A stretch of DNA of 64,000 bases, from positions 1-64,000 of the forward strand of contig JAPEUG010000045.1 in NCBI GenBank assembly GCA_026025795.1, read 5' to 3'. The position numbers were made by a program, and so were the translations under genes. Source of the DNA: Thelocarpon superellum. Its lineage: Eukaryota. Under the pieces are notes generated by a model. It searched no databases and had not been told where the DNA came from. It worked only from the letters and a program-made list of their open reading frames with translations. Of this stretch, positions 2,249-30,338 are shown piece after piece. How positions within the stretch are numbered: position 1 is the stretch's first letter; every line of letters begins with the position of its first letter.

Positions 2249-2656
2249 CCTGTCTCTCAGCATGAGTCGGCTACAGCTCAGTGGTCAGAGAGTATGGACC
2301 GGGGAGGGGCGATGCCACACGTTTGATATGAATCGCGAGGCTTCCCGCTGCGGGACCGGAGTGGCCGGCGTAGGAGTATGTTACTCGTATGAGTGTTCGT
2401 ACTCGATGTTGCAGCTACCCGGGCCGGTACGGTGGCCGCGTCGGTAAACAAGGACTCGTCGGCCAACGCCACCCAAGCAACAGGAACAACACCGGGTAAG
2501 CAAGGGTAAGGGTCGATCCGGCACATCGCCTTGTTGATACGTCATCCTTCAGACTGGAGCCTCAGCACACGACAGGGTCGACGACATGCCCAACCTCGCG
2601 CAGCACGGTGGGTAGACTGGGCTGGATACGCCGTGACGGCCTGGATGACCGTCAAC

Positions 2657-3883
2657 ATGGTCTATCTATGGCCTTGGAAGGTGTGACCATGCTATCCTCA
2701 AGCCGTCCTGGGTCCTGGTCTCGACTAACGCCGTCAGGGCGACGATGCCTCTCCCGCCTCCTTCGAGCGCGCCCTCTCTACCCTGTCGACCAAAATTGCC
2801 ACCAGCACGGCTCAGCTCGACTCCCTGCGTCAGAGACTGCGACGGTTGAAGGCACTCTGGACGTTGTACGCCATCTTCGCTTACATCCTGGTCGCACTCA
2901 TCCTCATCCTCGTCGTCGGCTGGCAACACTGGGGTGCGATCGAGTATGCGGCGGTCGCAGGGGGGCCGCCGCTCATCTATGCTGTACGTACCCTCATCAC
3001 GGCCTACTACAACTATCGACTATCCCACATCACGTCGCGGCTGGAGGAGCAGCAGAAGGAGAGGGATGCCACGATCGAAAAGCTCAAGGCCGCGACCAAA
3101 TACAATTCGACCCAGCAACTGCTCGACAAGTATGGGGGTTCGTCGGCACAGTCGTCCCCGGCGTCCGGCGGGTCGCAGAAGCGCAAAACGGGCTCGCGAC
3201 CGTCCAACCCCGGCACTCCCCAAGGACGGCCACAGCGGATAGGTTTCATGCCTCCGCCCACGGCGAACATTGCTCGACACACCCCTCCCACCCTCCCGTC
3301 CACGCCACAGCGCTCGCTTCCCTTCCCACCACATGTGGACTCGCCGGCTCTCGCCCAGCGCTCGCATGACACGCCTATCCAGCCGGGGCCCCCCGAGTTC
3401 GCGCCCAATGCCTTCTCCGGGCCGCGCCGATATTCCGGCTCCGCCGAGCCTGGGCCATCACATTGGTACGATCGGATCTTGGACGTGCTCTTGGGCGAAG
3501 ATGAGACATCCCCGCAGAACCGCATGGCCCTAATCTGTCAGCAATGCCGGCTGGTGAACGGACAAGCCCCGGCCGGCGTCAAGAGCCTGGAGGAATTGGG
3601 CCGATGGAAATGCACGAGCTGTGGAGCATGGAATGGAGAGGAGAACGAGGCAAAGAAGTTGGTGGACGAGATGAAGGGCCGCTTGAGAGTGGACGCCGCC
3701 AGTGAGCGCAGTGGTAGTGACGACGACGTCGTCGTCGTCCCACCAGGAGAAGATGCGATGGACACGACCAGTGATAATGCAGAGGTCGAGGCCGAGGCCG
3801 ATGATGGCAGAAAGAGCAGCGAGGGACAAGAGGACCGCGAACGGCCAGTCAGGCGCCGCCCAACACGCCCGAAACGTGGTTAA
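2657..3883 (+). CDS. LNP1: Lunapark, ER tubule junction protein
   Basis: Exon 1 MVYLWPWK (2657-2680), intron 2681-2737, then GDDASPASFE. Two TM helices; WYDRILDVLLGEDE and ALICQQCRLVNG...WKCTSCGAWN zinc ribbon. Confidence 0.93.
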
Positions 3884-4171
3884 GCGGCGTACTCACCGTG
3901 CGTGCTACGACAGTTCCTTGCTATCCCTTTCATGACCTCGACGTAACCTGTGTCATGATACCCGCCAGAGCTTCACTTTCCTTGAGCTCACCCACGGCAA
4001 CCCCTTCGGCCGCACGAAAGCCGGCTGGTTCGATCTCCCTTCGATCTGAGCCTTATCATGTGTTGAGGCAAATATGTGTATTGAATCCTTGGATCCTTCG
4101 ATCGCTGGGGTTCCTAATCTCGCCTAAGATCAGGGAGAGACAAACGACGGCACAGCGGCCGGCACTTGTGG

Positions 4172-4227
4172 GTAGCCGTAGCCGTGGTCGTGGCGGTGGC
4201 CGTAGCCGTAGCCGTAGCCGTAGCCGT
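4172..4227. repeat. (GTAGCC)n degenerate hexamer microsatellite upstream of GCV2
   Basis: gtagccgtagccgtggtcgtggcggtggccgtagccgtagccgtagccgtagccgt. Confidence 0.85.
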
Positions 4228-4438
4228 GCGTGCCAGAACCCGCCGTTACGATGTGACTATGTTCATGTTACAGTTAGCTGCTTGCTAGTGGTAGCTGCAG
4301 TAGTCGCCTCTCGTCGCCCCACTACGTGGACTATATGTGATGCATGCCCCACCACGCCAGCGCGCCCCACGAACGCCATCTCCCACGTCGCAAATTCCCC
4401 TTGCCTTGGGTGCTGGCTGCACGGATTGTCATCCCACC

Positions 4439-7400
4439 ATGGGGGATCGCAACGCCTTGTTGCGCTCCGGTCTCACCGGGCTGAGCCTGCGACTCACGCC
4501 ACCCCGAGCCCGCCGGCCCAGCCTGCGTCGGCCCCTGTCCCTTTCTAATTCCCACGCTCTGCTCCCGTCCCTCGCGGCGAGTCGCGTGTCTCGTCGCACC
4601 TTTTATGCCAGCACCACCGACGACAAAATCAACGCCGATGTACCCGACGATGCAGCCAACCCCTCGCGTCTCTTCGCGCCACTGGATACCTTCTCACGTC
4701 GACACATCGGCCCCACGCCCGCCTCAACCCAGCAGATGCTCCAGGCTCTGCAGCCACCGGTTCAGTCGCTCGACGAATTTGTCCAGCAGGTCCTCCCCCC
4801 GGGCATCTTCTCCTCCAAGAATCTGCGCATCGATGGCCCGCCCTCCACCGCCACCGCCCATCCGGGTCCGACGCAGAACCAGGAGGGCTTCTCTGAGAGC
4901 CAATTGATCGCTCGCCTCGGGCAGATTGCCCGTGGAAACCGCGTTCTCCGCAGCTACATCGGCTGTGGATATGCCGGCACGCGAGTGCCCGAGGTCATCA
5001 AGCGGAATGTCTTGGAGAGTCCGGGCTGGTATACCAGCTATACCCCCTATCAGCCAGAGATCAGCCAGGGCCGACTGGAGTCACTGCTCAACTTCCAGAC
5101 CATGGTGTCGGACCTGACCGCCCTCGCCATCTCCAATGCCTCGGTCTTGGATGAATCCACCGCCGCCGCTGAAGCCATGACCATGTCCCTTAACGCGCTG
5201 CCTACAGCCCGGCAGAAACGACTTGACAAGACCTATCTGGTCTCCCATCTGGTCCACCCGCAGACCACCGCCGTGCTCCGGTCCCGTGCCGAGGGTTTTG
5301 GCATCACGATCGAGGTCGCGGATGTCATGGCGCATGGCGGACGACGGGTCCAAGATCTGGGTCAAGACTTGGTGGGCGTCTTGGTCCAATACCCGGACAC
5401 TGAGGGCGGCGTCGAGGACTTCAAGGCCCTGTCCAAGACCATCCATGACCTTGGCGCCACTTTCTGTGTCGCCACCGATCTCCTGGCGCTGACCGTCCTG
5501 ACGCCCCCGGGCGAGTTTGGCGCGGACATTGCGTTTGGAAACGCACAGCGCTTCGGCGTTCCCTTCGGCTATGGCGGACCACACGCCGCCTTCTTTGCCT
5601 GCAGCGAGCAGCACAAGCGCAAGATTCCCGGACGCCTCGTCGGCGTCTCGAAAGATCGTTTGGGCAACCGGGCATTACGCTTGGCCTTGCAGACGAGAGA
5701 ACAGCATATCCGGCGGGAGAAGGCGACGAGTAACATCTGCACCGCCCAGGCCCTGCTCGCTAACATGAGCGCCTTCTACGCCATCTATCATGGTCCTCAC
5801 GGGCTCAGGGCTATAGCGGAGCACGTTGTTGGTCAGACGCGTGTCTTGGAAGAGGCCGTGCGGCGCATGGGCTTTTCCACGGGGTCGAGAGGAAAGGGAT
5901 CCGATGGCAGAGCTCTCTTCGACACGATTGTGGTGCACGTCGGACCCGGCCGGGCGAAAGAGATCGTCGCATGGGGGGCGGAGCACAAGAAGATCAACCT
6001 ACGACTCGTTGACGACGAGCGGGTTGGCGTGACACTGGATGAGACGGCGACGAAAGAGGACGTGACGGACATTTCGTCCATCTTCCGTAACTTCGCCCTT
6101 CAGCCTGATGATTCGCATGTGGAGGCGATAGTGGAGGAGCTGGATGTGGGCGCGGTAGCCCCTCCCTCCCTTCGACGGACCTCATCCTACCTGACCCATC
6201 CCGTCTTCAACGCCCATCACTCCGAGACCGAGCTGCTTCGGTACATTCATCACCTGCAGTCGCGCGATCTGTCCCTCACCCACTCGATGGTCCCGTTGGG
6301 ATCGTGCACGATGAAGCTCAATGCCACCACTGAGATGATCCCCGTCTCCTGGCCCGAGTTCTCTTCGATACATCCTTTTGTGCCCGCCGACCAAGCCAAA
6401 GGTTACCGGGTGCTCATCGACGAGCTGGAGAAAGATCTCGCCGAGATCACGGGATTTGATGCCGTCTCGCTGCAACCCAATTCCGGGGCGCAGGGCGAGT
6501 TCACGGGTCTCCGGGTGATCCGGAAATACCTTGAAGGTCAGCCGGGCAAGAAGAGGGATATCTGCTTGATTCCCGTGTCGGCCCACGGGACGAATCCGGC
6601 CAGTGCGGCCATGGCCGGCATGCGGGTGGTGACGATCAAGTGCGAGCCCGGCACGGGGAACCTGGACATGGCCGACCTGACGGCCAAGTGCGAGAAGTAT
6701 GCCGAGGAGCTGGGAGCGATCATGATCACCTATCCAAGCACCTTTGGCGTCTTTGAGCCCGAGGTCAAGCAGGCCTGCGACGTCGTTCACGCGCACGGAG
6801 GCCAAGTCTACATGGATGGAGCCAACCTGAACGCGCAAATTGGCCTGTGTACTCCAGGAGAGATCGGGGCCGATGTGTGCCATCTGAACCTGCACAAGAC
6901 CTTTTGCATTCCCCACGGCGGGGGAGGACCCGGCGTCGGTCCCATCGGGGTGAAGAGCCACCTTGCACCCTTCCTACCAGGCCACCCGCTGGTGGCGACG
7001 GGAGGAGAGAAAGGCATCGCTCCCGTCAGTGCAGCGCCTTGGGGCAATGCCAGCATCCTGCCAATCAGCTGGGCCTACATCAAGATGATGGGTAAGACGA
7101 TCTTTTGCTCCGTCGTGACCAATCTGACCCTTTCCATAGGTGGTCGCGGCTTGACCCACGCCACCAAGATCACCCTGCTCAACGCCAACTACATCCTCTC
7201 TCGTCTCTCTCCACACTATCCCATCTTGTACACCAACTCATCTTCACGATGCGCACACGAGTTCATTCTCGATGTTCGAAAGTTCAAGGAGACGGCGGGC
7301 GTCGAAGCCATCGACGTTGCCAAACGCCTGCAAGACTATGGCTTCCACGCGCCCACCATGTCCTGGCCCGTCGCCAACACCTTGATGATCGAGCCCACCG

Positions 7401-12953: not shown

Positions 12954-13636
12954 TCAATCCGATCCCGGTGGAACCTGCTCGTATTTGACACGCGCTCCTG
13001 CAAATAGTTCCTCTTGCTGTCGTAACAGTTCGGCCTCTGACAATCCACTCTGTTCCAACTTGGATTGCTTTTTCTCTCTTGTCTGTAGCAAGGTCAGTGG
13101 TGAACAGTGCGGTGATGGGTCGACGAGGCCCCGCGGTCAATGATGCCGCCAACTGCTGAGTGACTAGAGAGGCTTACCTTTTGCTGTTCCTTGTGTTCGC
13201 TAGCGACCTCTAGAACTTCCTCTATATATTCATGGAAGCCAAGATCTTCCAAAGCGCGCGTGACGTGCTCACAGGCAATGGTCTTCTTGGCTTCCTTCTC
13301 GGCAATGTCATTGGCTTCGGAGGAGATGAGCGTGATGAATTCCACGCAGCATTCGATGAGTAAGTCTCGTGCATCTTTGGCAAAGGTTTGGCCGGACGAA
13401 GCGGGGATTATCTCGGTGATGATCTTTTGTACCGTTGCTGCGAGACGCGGTTAGCTCGATGGTCCTCCGAAGAGTGGTGTGTGTGTCCTTTCGGGAGGTC
13501 ATGTACCTTTGGGCAACGATAGGTCGTCGGCCCCTGTAGATGCTCATCAGCAAGCGCCGCAAATATAAGATCCGAGCGAGGATGGCAGAGCTTCCTTCTC
13601 TCCCGCTGACTTACCTCCGAACTCCTTGTCCGACAT
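12954..13636 (-). CDS. NCB2: Negative cofactor 2 beta (Dr1), histone fold
   Basis: MSDKEFG / DDLSLPK / ATVQKII...ARDLLIECCVEFITLISSEANDIAEKEAKKTIACEHV / TREKKQSKLEQSGLSEAELLRQQEELF. Three introns. Confidence 0.95.
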
Positions 13637-14225
13637 GGTCGGGCCGGCGAGTATGACCCGACGAAGTCGTGGTGGGGGTGTAGGTCAAGGGGGACGAATC
13701 CAAGTCGCGTCTTCAGTGAACATGTACAAACTATTACAGGTAGAAGACGTGCATCGAAACGATTCTTTGTCCGCCCGTTTGTGCAGGCTTCAGTCAAAGG
13801 GCCAGAGGATGCAAGGTCCGATTGGACCGCGCTCAGCTAGTGTCTCCTAGGAGATACACGGTAAGTTACGAAGGACGTCGGCTATGGCGGGGCGAAACGG
13901 GTCGGTATTTGTAGGAGCGTCGTACTCCGGCTCACGGAAGAAGCCGAGTCGCCTGCGATTCCAGCACGCAATATTACTCGTTAGCTGACAGCTAAACGAT
14001 TCGGCTCACAACCAAATCTTCCAAATCTCACAAATTTCAAATCTAGGCCAACACCACCATGCCTCTGACGTGAATCACCACTCCGAAGCTACGGTCTTAA
14101 CCAGCAAGGGAAGACATGATACTCATGATCTCATGGACAGTGACAAGGCCCACAGGGGTCTCTTGACTGGTCAGTTCTGCGCTCTACACACCCGTCTTTT
14201 GTACTCCTCCCCGTCCTTCCCTTCC

Positions 14226-14332
14226 TACCGTGATGAACATTCGTGTCGCCCCTATCATACCAAGAGCACGCAAGTATTTGCCTCTATGTTGTGGTGATAG
14301 ACCTGTCTATACCAAACAGACTTTCTGATGAC
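14226..14332 (+). ncRNA. snR67: Box C/D snoRNA, snR67/U31-like (LSU Gm2619 guide)
   Basis: C box GTGATGA 14230-14236. Guide GTGTCGCCCC 14243-14252 pairs LSU GGGGCGGCAC with one G.U and resembles yeast snR67 UGUCGCCCC. Degenerate D' CATA, C'-like GTGATAG 14294, D CTGA 14325-14328. Clustered with snR53 as in yeast. Confidence 0.7.
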
Positions 14333-14561
14333 CGTCCTCGAACCACGCTGCTTCTCGGCGACTTGGAGTCTGACGCGTGTTGCTTACATATACGCTGGAA
14401 GCAGGAATCTCCTCGAGCCTCTCATGAGCTTGTCATGCTGCTGCTTGATATGCTTGCTATACTTGAAATCTCTGGGCTCAACAGGAATTGCCATCAGTAG
14501 GGCTGCAGACGTGCGTAAGGACCTTTTCCACTTCACTAATTCTTCTCTTCCACAACGCACT

Positions 14562-14640
14562 ATGTTACATGATGACCACAAATATACTATCAAATGCCGA
14601 TCACCCATGACGAGCTAATTTTGGTTCGATTGTCTGACAT
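14562..14640 (+). ncRNA. Box C/D snoRNA with two guides (Z17/SNORD4-like SSU Um121-equivalent, plus an LSU guide)
   Basis: C ATGATGA 14569, D' CCGA 14597, C' ATGACGA 14607, D CTGA 14634, terminal ATGT/ACAT stem. TACTATCAAAT pairs SSU AUUUGAUAGUA; TGGTTCGATT pairs LSU AAUCGAACCA. Confidence 0.85.
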
Positions 14641-14879
14641 TTCTGTCGCGTCACGTTCGAGTAAATGCCGACAATCATCTGTATCATAGGCTAATCTTGA
14701 ATGTGGATTGCTAGATGCCTGCAACATTACTCAACGTCCTCGACTGTATTTTGTGCCCGAGCATAAGGTAAGGACAAGAAACCTCCTACCTCATAGCTCC
14801 AACGCCCCCACATCTGCCCACACACTGCCCGCCTGCTTCCTTCTGCAACAAAGAACGGAAGAAGGGAAGGGAGAGGCTC

Positions 14880-14978
14880 AACGCTAATGATGTAAAAAAC
14901 ATTCCATGCTAAAGCAGAAGGGCGTTACAGCCCTGATGCTGAAATCGAAGTTGCTTTTCATCTTTCGACTGAAGCGTT
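14880..14978 (+). ncRNA. snR53: Box C/D snoRNA, snR53-like (SSU Am796 guide)
   Basis: Terminal stem AACGCT/AGCGTT; C ATGATGT 14887. Guide ATTCCATGCTAA 14901-14912 pairs SSU UUAGCAUGGAAU. D' CAGA 14915, internal AGGGC/GCCCT stem, C' CTGATGC, D CTGA 14969. Confidence 0.88.
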
Positions 14979-15347
14979 TTCATGCCCCCTCCATCTTCCC
15001 CTACGTTCTCCCCACTACCTCGCCTCCTCTTCTGGACCGCGCTGGTGGCCAAGGAATGCGATTGCTGATTTGGAAGCCAGTCTGTTCGGTCAATTCCCGG
15101 CCTCGTATATGGAGGTAGGCAGGTGGGTGAATTGAAGAGTCGGAAGGAATAATACCCAGCTCATACACCTAGTCAATTCTACGCCTGGATAGGGAGCCCA
15201 ACAAGCCGTATACATTTCTCGGAATGGGACATCTAGCCATACTTGCATGCTCACGTGAACCAATCATACTCCTCTTGTCCTTCCGCTCTCTTACCCAGCA
15301 TGCCAACACCACATCCAAAAGCAAGTCCATCATCTGATCTCTCCTCA

Positions 15348-16829
15348 TCAGCCATCCCGTATCGGCACAGCACCAGCACCAGCACCAGCACCGGCGCTCA
15401 GCTTAACCGGCACAGGCGCCCAAGTATCAACTGATGCACGAAGCCCCGCTGCCCTTAGAGAAGCCAGGGCAGCCACGACGATGGCGGACTTTCCGAATCG
15501 CTCTCTCATGTCCCCGTCCAGATTGAACACCACTTCCCTGAGGTGCGGAAGCGAGCAGGTCGAGGTGGAGGAGAAGGAGGAGGAGGAGGAGAAGGCCTGC
15601 ACGGCACTGACCAGGATCCCCGCTGCCTCTTGGGGACCGAGGCTCGGACTGAGATAGACGTGCAAGCTGCGTAGACTGGACGGGAGGTGCTGCAGCGTGG
15701 ACGACTCGAGGTCGGGCCAGCCGAGCTCGAGGTGTTGGAGCTCGGAGGCGGAGAGGAGACCGTGTAGCGTCGCAAGACATGTAGGTGATGGCGTGAAGTC
15801 GGCCGAGAGGTTCAGGCGCCGGAGCGAGGAGCCGTGGGATTCCATGATGGCTGCGAGCATCTCCGTTACGAAAAACACTTCGCCTTCTGTCGACGCCGGG
15901 TCTCGGACGTCGCAGATGGTCAGGATGCGTAGCGGTCGTAGGCCTCGCATGACACCGGGCGCGAGGGACTGGCCGATGAACGGTCCAGTGTACCCGGCTC
16001 GTTGCTGGAAGAATAGTCCAGGCGGCGGTCCGATCAGCTCCAGTTCATCAAGCCGGCGGAGGCTGGAAAGAATCTGGAGTGTTTCCCGCGGTGGCGTGGC
16101 GGAGAAGCCGCTGAAGCGGAGACTGCGTAGATCGGGAAACGACGTGAGGAAGTCTAGAGCGACGTGATCCAGCTGGCAGGAAAGCCGTTGAAGACGGGGC
16201 CAGCGGAGCGCGCTGACGGCACAGAAGGAGCGCGAGAAATGCCGGTAGGCGTGGTAGTGGGAGTTGCGCGGCTTGAAGATGCTCAGATCTCGCACCCCGG
16301 ACAGGTGCTGCATTGCGGACGATAGCTCGCCCACCTCGTCCTCATAGAGACGCGCGATGGGACTGATGCTGCCATCCTTCCCAGAAGGCGCGACGTCTTT
16401 CACCCGCTGATGGCCCTTGATGTCCACGACGGTGATGCCCAAGCACTTGACGTGATGGAGCTGACTCGATCCCCTCCGTCGCATCCATTCGTACAGATCG
16501 TACTGGGAAGCAAAGGTCACGGGACGTTGGAACAGATATGGCTGCGCCTCGTGATAGATCTGCCGGGACACTTGGAGGACGTGGACATTGGCGCACGATG
16601 CGCTGGAAAGCAGTTCCGCGTAGATGTGCTGTCGGATTTCTAGCGGCAAGAGGAAGATCGGCGACGCAGCTGAGCTGCCATTCATCGCACGCCCGTCGCC
16701 GGACGTCATCTCCAGGCCACGCTGTGGCCGGGCCTTCCTCGCACCCTGATCGAGCGCGAGATCCCGCGATACAGGCGCAGGACGAGCCAAGGGCACGAGG
16801 GACGCAGGACTGAGCGCGAGAATGGACAT
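15348..16829 (-). CDS. Hypothetical protein with an F-box-like N-terminal motif and leucine-rich repeats
   Basis: 493-aa uninterrupted ORF; FLLPLEIRQHIYAELL...VSRQIYHEA followed by LxxLxL repeats. The true start may be the downstream Met at ~16709. Confidence 0.7.
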   Translation of the reverse strand: MSILALSPASLVPLARPAPVSRDLALDQGARKARPQRGLEMTSGDGRAMNGSSAASPIFLLPLEIRQHIYAELLSSASCANVHVLQVSRQIYHEAQPYLFQRPVTFASQYDLYEWMRRRGSSQLHHVKCLGITVVDIKGHQRVKDVAPSGKDGSISPIARLYEDEVGELSSAMQHLSGVRDLSIFKPRNSHYHAYRHFSRSFCAVSALRWPRLQRLSCQLDHVALDFLTSFPDLRSLRFSGFSATPPRETLQILSSLRRLDELELIGPPPGLFFQQRAGYTGPFIGQSLAPGVMRGLRPLRILTICDVRDPASTEGEVFFVTEMLAAIMESHGSSLRRLNLSADFTPSPTCLATLHGLLSASELQHLELGWPDLESSTLQHLPSSLRSLHVYLSPSLGPQEAAGILVSAVQAFSSSSSFSSTSTCSLPHLREVVFNLDGDMRERFGKSAIVVAALASLRAAGLRASVDTWAPVPVKLSAGAGAGAGAVPIRDG

Positions 16830-28819: not shown

Positions 28820-30338
28820 TCAAGTCAACAAAGACCACGGCGTCATTCGCGCCCCGATAGCTGTGTTTCTTTTTGAGTTTCCCTCGCCATGCATCATGTC
28901 TGCGCCCCGCTTGAGATGGTCGGGTCCGACGTGCTCACGATCGACTGGTCCTCCCCGGTCTGGCGGCTCCATACCCTGCCTCGTCGCCATTGGCGTCTGC
29001 CACCGCGGCACACTACGCGCATCACCGCCCTCTGCCAATCGATCGCTCCGAGTCACATCGTCGCTAGACATCAGCCGCAATGCCCGGCCCGTCGCGTCCC
29101 GTGATGGGCGCGCCAAAGCAGGGCTGCAAGCCAGGAGTCGTCGCAGCAAAGAGATCGGGAGGATCGAGGGCAGAGGAATCGTGGAGTGCGTGGAGTTCGC
29201 GGTGATAGTCGCCCAGAGGGCTGAGGCAGGATGGCTCGGGGTCGAGATCCACGAGCGAATCAAAGGGGAAAGGGTCGCGCGGAGCTGCGCCATCGTGGGG
29301 GGTGACGGGGCCGAAGCCGTCGTCAAAGAGTGAAAAATCGCCGCCGTAGGAAAGAGTACCCGCGAATAGACGGCCGAGACCATGCTCATGTAGAGGACTT
29401 GCGTCATCATCGTGAGAGTGAGCAGAAAGGCTCGGCGTGGCGATGGCGTCGCGAGCGTCGAGAGCTCGCTCGAGACCGGACCCCATGGAGGCCGAGTGTC
29501 TCCCGACTGACACTGCAGGTCGCACAACATCGCGGCAGGATGTTGTGTCAGGTCGGGAGACGTGGCGGTGGGGTCGGCCTTGGGCGAGCCCGATGAGGGC
29601 GAGGCGAAGGCGGCGTCACGCGGGTCCACGGTGGACTGGGGCGGGGGAAGGGCGAAGTCAAGCTCATCGAATTCCGACTTGAGCTGTGGCACCGCTGAGT
29701 CTTGGAAAAGGGTCGACGCCACCGAGGGCGACGTGGTCTTGGAACTCTGGTCGGGCGTGGGGAGGTCGGAGGGTTTGATCATCTTGCGAAAGACTGTCAT
29801 CTCCGCGGCCATCTTGGCCACGGTCTCGCGGAGGCTGTGGTTCTCTAGCTCGGCTTGCCGGAGACGCATCGCGAGGCCCTCGCTGGCCCGCTCGATCTCG
29901 CGCTTCTCGTCCTCCAAGCCTTCGACTTCCTTGCGTTTGCGTTCGCGCGACGACTGGGCCGCCGCGCGGTTGCGCAAAACTCGCTCAATACGACGCTGCT
30001 CCTTCTCATCTTCAGTCTTGGCCCGTTTCCTGACGAACTGGTTAGCCAGGCCTCGCTGCGACCGGCGTCAGCCACACGTACCGAGGAGGGAGGTTCGTCT
30101 TGGGCGTCGGGAGCTCTTGGCCCCAGGACTTTCGCTTCTTCACAGCCTTCTTCTCCGTCGCATCCGACGAAGACTGTGGTTGCGGCGTCCCGGAGAACTC
30201 GCGCTCGCTCTCGTCGAGCGACCGCGGCGTCAGCGCCGTCACCGTCGGCGAGTTGTTGTCGTTGTGGTCGAAGAGGGATGGGTAGGCGTCGCTCGGCCCC
30301 GAGAGGAGCGAGTCGGCCGGACTGAAGTTGGGATTCAT
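28820..30338 (-). CDS. HAC1: bZIP unfolded-protein-response transcription factor HacA/Hac1 (unspliced stop 28820; Ire1-spliced stop 29064)
   Basis: KKRKSWGQELPTPKTNLPPR / KRAKTEDEKEQRRIERVLRNRAAAQSSRERK. Spliceosomal intron 30081-30030. DLTQHPAAMLCDLQCQ marks the Ire1 intron. Confidence 0.96.
29516..29535 (-). promoter_or_regulatory. 20-nt unconventional Ire1-spliced intron of hacA
   Basis: Minus strand ...CATCCTG|CCGCGATGTTGTGCGACCTG|CAGTGTCAG: two CNG/CNG sites 20 nt apart, with ACAACATC/GATGTTGT and CTGACAC/GTGTCAG stems. Confidence 0.93.

Follow-up and report, generated by a model that had tools for sequence, protein, structure and literature searches.

What occupies the plus strand at 14041-15100 in the first 64,000 nucleotides (nt) of contig JAPEUG010000045.1 of Thelocarpon superellum (GenBank assembly GCA_026025795.1; the whole stretch is called the window here), a gap flanked by a minus-strand histone-fold gene and a convergent open reading frame (ORF) of 493 amino acids (aa)? 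The reading favored here, with a probability of about 0.82, is that ~14000 to ~15340 (+) is a non-protein-coding host gene of small nucleolar RNAs (snoRNAs) with three intronic box C/D snoRNAs, designated c1, c2, and c3. A 1.3-kb annotation gap is filled in this way, since protein-based gene callers would leave the stretch intergenic. The feature is a real one; it is conserved and looks functional, and its kind has already been described in filamentous fungi. The elements of the three snoRNAs are as follows.

14230-14978, plus strand: snoRNA cluster c1-c3, three box C/D units, one per putative intron
14230..14328, plus strand: c1, snR67/U31-family box C/D snoRNA (boxes, D' guide, weak Rfam snR67 match, alignment A1)
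14230-14236, plus strand: c1 C box GTGATGA
14243-14255, plus strand: c1 D' guide
14256-14259, plus strand: c1 D' box CATA, degenerate
~14305-14321, plus strand: c1 covarying hairpin with CCAAAC loop
14325-14328, plus strand: c1 D box CTGA
14569..14637, plus strand: c2, double-guide box C/D snoRNA (boxes, two guides to ribosomal RNA, alignment A2)
14569-14575, plus strand: c2 C box ATGATGA
14585-14595, plus strand: c2 D' guide
14597-14600, plus strand: c2 D' box CCGA
14607-14613, plus strand: c2 C' box ATGACGA
14622-14632, plus strand: c2 D guide
14634-14637, plus strand: c2 D box CTGA
14880..14978, plus strand: c3, homologue of snR53 and Neurospora crassa CD11 (boxes, stem, both guides)
14880-14885 and 14973-14978, plus strand: c3 terminal stem AACGCT/AGCGTT, 6 base pairs (bp)
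14887-14893, plus strand: c3 C box ATGATGT
14901-14912, plus strand: c3 D' guide
14915-14918, plus strand: c3 D' box CAGA
14936-14942, plus strand: c3 C' box
14952-14968, plus strand: c3 D guide
14969-14972, plus strand: c3 D box CTGA

All three units have a C box (RUGAUGA) and a D box (CUGA) that lie 60-150 nt apart. When both strands of the window were scanned for units combining these two boxes with a terminal stem of 4 bp or more, four candidates were obtained; c3 was the only one in the region and the only one with a 6-bp stem. The guides were examined for complementarity to ribosomal RNA (rRNA) using as the reference L044, a fungal ribosomal DNA (rDNA) unit annotated with Rfam: small subunit (SSU) at 228-2027, 5.8S at 2234-2387, and large subunit (LSU), with a group I intron, at 2517-6313. 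The unit derives from a contaminant fungal contig with three rDNA repeats in a prokaryote assembly (G001 contig C4, 24 kb), and such contaminant rDNA was located with a fungal SSU primer pattern. The rRNA found on viral contigs, an atypical SSU and a stub of an LSU, was rejected as a reference. As an observation aside, fungal rDNA contigs (L005-L041) were present in at least 37 prokaryote genome assemblies and metagenome-assembled genomes.

The L044 rRNA was searched for Watson-Crick complements to either strand of the window, and every maximal match of 10 nt or more was collected. The numbers were 464, 118, 26, 8, 4, 1, and 1 for lengths of 10, 11, 12, 13, 14, 15, and 17 nt, respectively. The single 17-mer, the longest rRNA complement in the two-strand window (128 kb searched), is the D guide of c3. 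It pairs 17/17 with LSU 360-376, directly adjoins the D box, and points to A364 as the target. The D' guide of c3 pairs 12/12 with SSU 793-804 (target A795). Each guide was also compared, anchored at its box, with 300 shuffled versions by Watson-Crick pairing; power was lost when G.U pairs were allowed. None of the shuffles reached the pairing of either c3 guide (0/300 in both cases). Both guides of c2 pair over 11/11 positions, the D' guide with SSU 119-129 (target U122) and the D guide with LSU 921-931 (target U924), a result reached by 1/300 shuffles each. For c1, the D' guide at 14246-14255 pairs 10/10 with LSU 906-915 (target G910; shuffles 8/300). Five of the six guide positions thus have 10-17 Watson-Crick pairs that 0-8 of the 300 shuffles attain, and all guide duplexes are correctly placed relative to the D or D' box. 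One 11-mer, at 14492-14502 in putative exon 3, was put down to chance: it is not accompanied by boxes, and it is one of 118 complements of that length.

Conservation was examined in metagenome loci retrieved with a pattern consisting of the two guide cores of c3 separated by a gap of 20-50 nt, in which the boxes were not included. From 106 matches, 80 loci were taken; they are fungal. The C, D', C', and D boxes align in 69 distinct c3 sequences, that of the window included, and the layout is that of a C box, a guide, two variable nt, a D' box, a small hairpin, a C' box, a guide, and a D box. The D' box is mostly CTGA across the loci, and CAGA in the window and in L058. In alignment A1 (the window and 46 distinct c1 homologues) the C-box core, TGTCGCCCC, the C' core, CCAAA, and CTGA are invariant. 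In alignment A2 (the window and 35 c2 homologues) the C box, the D' guide, a D' box of the form C-N-G-A, the C' box ATGACGA, the D guide, and the D box are conserved. Boxes and guides in A1 and A2 are invariant or nearly so, and the spacers are variable. A sequence-only model built from A2 matched the window once, at 14560-14641 with 63 bits, the sequence of the window being part of the training set.

The order of the members is conserved as well. The guide core of c1 was found within 1100 nt upstream in 50/50 loci that have at least 900 nt of upstream sequence; by our own arithmetic, an 8-mer is expected by chance in such a stretch in ~2 % of cases. In the window, the c1 guide lies 656 nt upstream of the c3 D' guide, which is wider than in most of the metagenome loci. 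At least one c2 guide motif was present in 33/50 loci and both motifs in 20/50, while a c2 motif within 300 nt was seen in 43/66 loci with at least 300 nt upstream. Loci without c2 motifs are of three kinds. Some are compact two-member clusters with a spacing of ~250-280 nt and no middle member, others carry a middle snoRNA of the same build with different guides (L059, L071), and others contain decayed c2 copies (L058, L099, L102). The first-pass annotation of this DNA had described an snR67-snR53 cluster with a third member between the two; the linkage of c1 and c3 and the frequent presence of c2 bear this out. It had named conservation of the boxes and synteny in related fungi as a check, and boxes, guides, and linkage are indeed kept in the metagenome loci.

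The two outer members can be compared with well-described families. The comparisons with N. crassa draw on the portion of Liu et al. (2009, PMC2780460) that is available, and those with fungi at large on the corresponding portion of Canzler et al. (2018, PMC5824354). N. crassa CD11 is a 79-nt intronic snoRNA on chromosome I and a homologue of snR53; it guides 18S-Am793 via D', U6-Am47, and 26S-Am356 via D with 15/0 pairing (Liu et al. 2009). c3 has the same double guide, for 18S A79x via D' and 26S A35x-36x via D. That the D' guide of this family suits U6 as well (A47 in N. crassa) is given by Liu et al. (2009) and Canzler et al. (2018). In the nomenclature of Canzler et al. (2018), snR53 is CD_11 and snR67 is CD_26, and c1 contains the D' guide core of CD_26/snR67, the family of N. 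crassa CD26. A switched D' target of CD_26, 25S-1898 (yeast G908), is given for Dothideomycetes, Eurotiomycetes, Leotiomycetes, and Neurospora (Canzler et al. 2018). The 10/10 pairing found between c1 and LSU 906-915 agrees with this switch, and the cluster is thus the orthologue that would be expected of a type described before. Both CD11 and CD26 of N. crassa are encoded in introns on chromosome I, and the likeness of their linkage to that of c1 and c3 goes as far as this shared placement (Liu et al. 2009). Yeast snR67, human U31, and plant U31/snoR35 belong to one clan, CL00053, and share the same 25S/28S G, according to the part of Hoeppner and Poole (2012) that could be consulted. The assignment of the outer members to snR67 and snR53, made earlier from the sequence, agrees with the guide core and weak snR67 match of c1 and with the CD11-type double-guide anatomy of c3.

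In Saccharomyces cerevisiae, too, the snR67 and snR53 families are adjacent, with 18S A796 as the snR53 site and 25S G2619 as the target of the snR67 D' guide, as far as the sources at hand show. There is no third member in S. cerevisiae, whereas c2 lies between the two here, and splice signals flank the snoRNAs here. The yeast snR67-snR53 unit is a non-intronic dicistronic precursor that is processed by an endonuclease and exonucleases.

The proposed structure of the host gene is as follows.

14000..14069, plus strand: putative exon 1 (sequence and model), first ATG at 14059-14061, 5' limit arbitrary
14070..14140, plus strand: putative intron 1, uncertain, 71 nt, without snoRNA, GTGAAT...CAG, with TTAAC at 14097 as the sole branch-like site
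14170..14404, plus strand: putative intron 2, 235 nt, hosts c1, GTCAGT donor, CTGAC at 14370, CAG acceptor
14405..14510, plus strand: putative exon 3, unconserved (neither blastn nor tblastx matched it in the 80 loci)
14511..14689, plus strand: putative intron 3, 179 nt, hosts c2, GTGCGT...TAG
14690..14767, plus strand: putative exon 4, unconserved (blastn and tblastx, 80 loci)
14768..15080, plus strand: putative intron 4, 313 nt, hosts c3, AAG|GTAAGG donor, CTGAT at 15065, CAG acceptor
15081..15340, plus strand: putative last exon, placed by inference only, which must stop short of 15348, the end of the convergent ORF

Splice signals were examined in 71 non-redundant loci by searching for a donor-type motif at most 150 nt upstream and a CTRAY...YAG arrangement at most 150 nt downstream of each snoRNA homologue, counting only homologues flanked by 60 nt or more on either side; the same flanks on the opposite strand served as the control. 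Both signals were present on the sense strand in 43/47 cases for c1, 24/33 for c2, and 50/65 for c3, against 6/47, 4/33, and 7/65, respectively, on the antisense strand. This sense-strand enrichment supports a conserved layout in which each intron holds one snoRNA. Four GT..AG introns, with a C/D snoRNA in each of introns 2-4, had been proposed for the window. The GT..AG pairs stand at exactly the proposed positions and c1, c2, and c3 lie in the three putative introns 2-4, while intron 1 has found no support. Across 13950-15345, blastn and tblastx similarity to the loci is essentially limited to the three snoRNA segments, with a few weak high-scoring segment pairs beyond c3 (15013-15335, tblastx) that look low in complexity on inspection. 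The loci include no close relatives, the best nucleotide identity being ~75-80 % and confined to the neighboring coding gene.

N. crassa provides the experimental precedent. According to the available part of Liu et al. (2009), 45/55 of its C/D snoRNAs are intronic and 5/6 of its clusters are shared with yeast. The hosts of these clusters are UHG-like, have ORFs of only 159-267 bp, were sequenced after reverse transcription PCR (RT-PCR), and were judged to be non-coding. The locus examined here resembles them in having one snoRNA per intron and only short ORFs, and it shows the UHG-like properties of canonical splice sites for each snoRNA, the lack of a conserved ORF, and exons that are less conserved than the snoRNAs. 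The mammalian UHG and GAS5 genes are likewise non-coding, spliced, poorly conserved hosts of conserved intronic C/D snoRNAs; this is a likeness without homology, and the same analogy was drawn in the text of Liu et al. (2009). From the conserved splice signals and the N. crassa RT-PCR precedent, we infer an intronic host gene.

The same exons bear on the possibility that the host transcript also encodes a functional small protein. The first ATG of the spliced model opens an ORF of 20 aa, as had been stated in the first-pass annotation; the statement that this is the only ORF did not hold, as an internal ORF of 78 aa is present too. Both ORFs thus exist in the spliced model, yet the 78-aa ORF hinges on an arbitrary 3' end, arising when the last exon is run to 15340, and it gave no tblastn match in the 80 loci. 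With the lack of conservation of exons 3 and 4 and the non-coding verdict on N. crassa hosts with ORFs of comparable kind (Liu et al. 2009, in the part available), a protein-coding role is highly improbable.

Several observations weigh against an intron-encoded snoRNA cluster. On the side of the introns, intron 1 has a weak GTGAAT donor and neither conservation nor any other support, and the sole CTRAY-type branch match of intron 3 is the D box of c2 itself. On the side of the snoRNAs, no terminal stem of 4 bp or longer is present within 2 nt of the boxes in c1 or c2, and the D' box of c1 (CATA) is degenerate. Rfam gave nothing in the cluster region at gathering score. The only match of c1 was to snR67 (RF01177), with 18.1 bits (gathering score 55) and an E value of 0.83, and neither c2 nor c3 matched any family in the window at E values up to 10, snR53 (RF00338) included for c3. 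The Rfam search that had been recommended as a check therefore returned the expected family for c1, weakly, and none for the other two. The conservation of the c3 guides, of the D-guide motif of c2 in A2, and of the GTCGCCCC core of c1 in A1 is partly by construction because these were used to pick the sequences. As L044 comes from another fungus, the target numbering and the exact bases at variable positions may differ in T. superellum.

The intron-related points, together with the fact that the junctions are predicted here from sequence signals, would suit a situation in which the snoRNAs are real and not intron-encoded, each having its own promoter or all being excised from one polycistronic precursor that is not spliced. 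In budding yeast, five snoRNA clusters are polycistronic (Liu et al. 2009, available part). This arrangement is unlikely for the cluster described here, as the sense-strand excess of splice signals and the RT-PCR-proven, spliced hosts of N. crassa speak against it. The distances from donor to snoRNA are 60 nt for c1, 58 nt for c2, and 112 nt for c3; those of c1 and c2 are at the edge of the range of 41-60 nt in which most N. crassa distances fall, as given in the same source.

The missing stems and the silence of Rfam at gathering score, as well as the degenerate c2 copies in L099, L102, and L058, could be taken to mean that the matches to boxes and guides are fortuitous, or that the copies are decayed pseudo-snoRNAs without function. 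The shuffle tests, the presence of the longest rRNA complement of the window in c3, and the retention of boxes and guides in 47 (c1), 36 (c2), and 69 (c3) distinct sequences amid variable spacers make this scarcely credible. Rfam was also searched with homologues from 16 of the 80 loci. Homologues of c1 reached up to 26.5 bits with snR67 and 32.4 and 27.5 bits with snoU31b (gathering score 37), a family that is listed in Rfam without a clan; two c3 homologues weakly matched snoU6-53 (27.2 and 24.8 bits), and c2 homologues had no match at E values up to 1.

With the three snoRNAs as members of an intronic host gene, the locus would function as follows. The host gene would be transcribed divergently from the histone-fold gene and its pre-RNA would be spliced, after which trimming of introns 2, 3, and 4 would release one snoRNA each. 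Each snoRNA is expected to assemble into a box C/D small nucleolar ribonucleoprotein (snoRNP), a fibrillarin-type methyltransferase complex, which would 2'-O-methylate rRNA at the nucleotide opposite the fifth guide position, counted upstream from D or D'. In L044 numbering, the predicted targets are SSU A795 (the snR53 site) and LSU A364 (the CD11 site) for c3, and SSU U122 and LSU U924 for c2. In total, five or six rRNA methylation sites are predicted for this organism.

The target of c1 deserves separate consideration. Its single D' guide fits two 25S sites that have a common TTTGG...GGGGCG context. The pairing with LSU 906-915 begins at guide position 1. GTGTCGCCCC of c1 also pairs with LSU 3042-3051, which in L044 reads GGGGCGGCAC and is the G2619-type site; this pairing, read by hand, comprises 10 bp with one G.U and starts only from guide position 4. 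At the G908-type site, the duplex extends towards the D' box by 3 bp, through TAT after CCCC, in 33/47 sequences and on the 5' side by 1 bp in 47/47. At the G2619-type site, the extension towards the D' box is 0 bp in 38/47, and on the 5' side it is 3-5 bp via an invariant TGT in 47/47. Among the c1 homologues, TAT after CCCC (33/47) favors the G908-type site, and A-G-N variants (5/47) favor the G2619-type site. In published predictions, as far as the text is available, the D' target at yeast G2619 is found across Dikarya minus three classes (Canzler et al. 2018). It is possible that the target is a G in the GGGG run at LSU 3043 (the snR67/U31 site), the one at LSU 910 (yeast G908), or both.

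At the D position of c1, the best match to the L044 rRNA is 7 bp, a value reached by 198/300 shuffles. A D-box methylation guide was therefore rejected for c1, there being no rRNA match above the shuffles and a covarying hairpin instead. The D guide of yeast snR67 is directed at U2724, a target given for Saccharomycotina only (Canzler et al. 2018, available part), in contrast to the hairpin at that region of c1. In A1, the hairpin stem has at least 3 bp in 46/47 sequences and at least 4 bp in 37/47. Ten distinct inner arm pairs occur, among them GTCC/GGAC, GTCT/AGAC (in the window), GCG/CGC, GAGA/TCTC, and CTCC/GGAG. When partners were swapped between sequences, 71 % reached 3 bp and 39 % reached 4 bp, a control of only moderate power, as the arms of many sequences resemble each other. 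The loop, CCAAA(C), is kept in all A1 sequences, and its complement GTTTGG is found at L044 LSU 3034-3039, two nt 5' of GGGGCGGCAC. The invariant CCAAAC loop may thus form extra base pairs with the rRNA immediately upstream of the G2619-type target, judging from this complementarity. Such pairing would resemble the extra base-pairing described by van Nues et al. (2011); snR67 does not appear in the main text of that paper, as far as it is available.

The middle snoRNA, c2, is the part of the cluster with the fewest counterparts. Its description as Z17-like in the first-pass annotation could hold for function only, as the D' guide selects SSU U122, at or within ~2 nt of U123 of Arabidopsis, which RiboMeth-seq data assign to SnoR116; it is not supported as a family assignment, Rfam providing no match. 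The human SNORD4/Z17 site is 18S U121. A Z17/snoR116-like label is reasonable for the function of the D' guide, with the register given to within ~2 nt and read from unaligned numbering. c2 differs from SnoR116 and SNORD4 in its second guide, for LSU U924, which has no counterpart in the Arabidopsis table; nothing is listed there between 25S G917 and A945. If active as predicted, c2 may direct the methylation of 18S U12x and of a 25S U ~14 nt 3' of the G908 equivalent. The 18S U12x site is modified in plants and in humans and is not known to be modified in budding yeast. The 25S U site is not listed as modified in the tables for yeast, Arabidopsis, N. crassa, and A. fumigatus.

The targets of c2 are absent from the snoRNA Table 1 of A. 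fumigatus and have no entry in Table 1 of N. crassa as far as that paper is available (Liu et al. 2009, PMC2780460); nearby alignment positions are likewise absent from the available main text of Canzler et al. (2018, PMC5824354). No snoRNA paper was among the listed matches to the c2 guide strings in main texts. By comparison with Rfam, the published tables, and main texts, c2 may be the only member of the cluster that is uncatalogued. A broader proposal, made tentatively and with the odds rather against it, is that c2 represents an uncatalogued family widespread in filamentous ascomycetes that was inserted between snR67 and snR53, and that the D guide of c1 turned into a hairpin with extra rRNA pairing. 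Four loci (L059, L064, L071, and L103) contain, between the c1 and c3 homologues, a snoRNA with a c2-like box layout (D' box CCGA, C' box ATGACGG) and other guides. These sequences suggest that guides could be turned over at a fixed position in the cluster.

The arrangement as a whole has been textbook knowledge for Pezizomycotina since Liu et al. (2009), so that the value of the locus lies in annotation and comparison and not in a new principle. The possibly new parts are only the middle snoRNA c2 and its predicted 25S U site, which has no counterpart in the published tables that were compared. The comparison also shows that many environmental fungi share the snR67-snR53 linkage and have a histone-fold gene paired divergently with it.

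The divergent neighbor is located as follows.

13094..13640, minus strand: histone-fold gene, outside the cluster and given as context ("NCB2" is the label of the first-pass annotation)

The ORF piece at 13094-13345 of this gene matches Pfam CBFD_NFYB_HMF with an E value of 2.1e-6. A histone-fold neighbor was found in 25 loci, in every one of them upstream and on the opposite strand, as had been claimed for the window; it is present in 24/39 loci with at least 1500 nt upstream. On the other side, the convergent 493-aa ORF (15348-16829, minus strand) has a sub-threshold match to Pfam DUF7730 (20.1 bits against 27). Elsewhere in the window, at 29498-29561 (minus strand), Rfam identifies a non-canonical Hac1/Xbp1 (bZIP) intron with 46.6 bits (gathering score 41, E value 5.8e-6); this match would mark the gene of the unfolded-protein-response transcription factor of this fungus.

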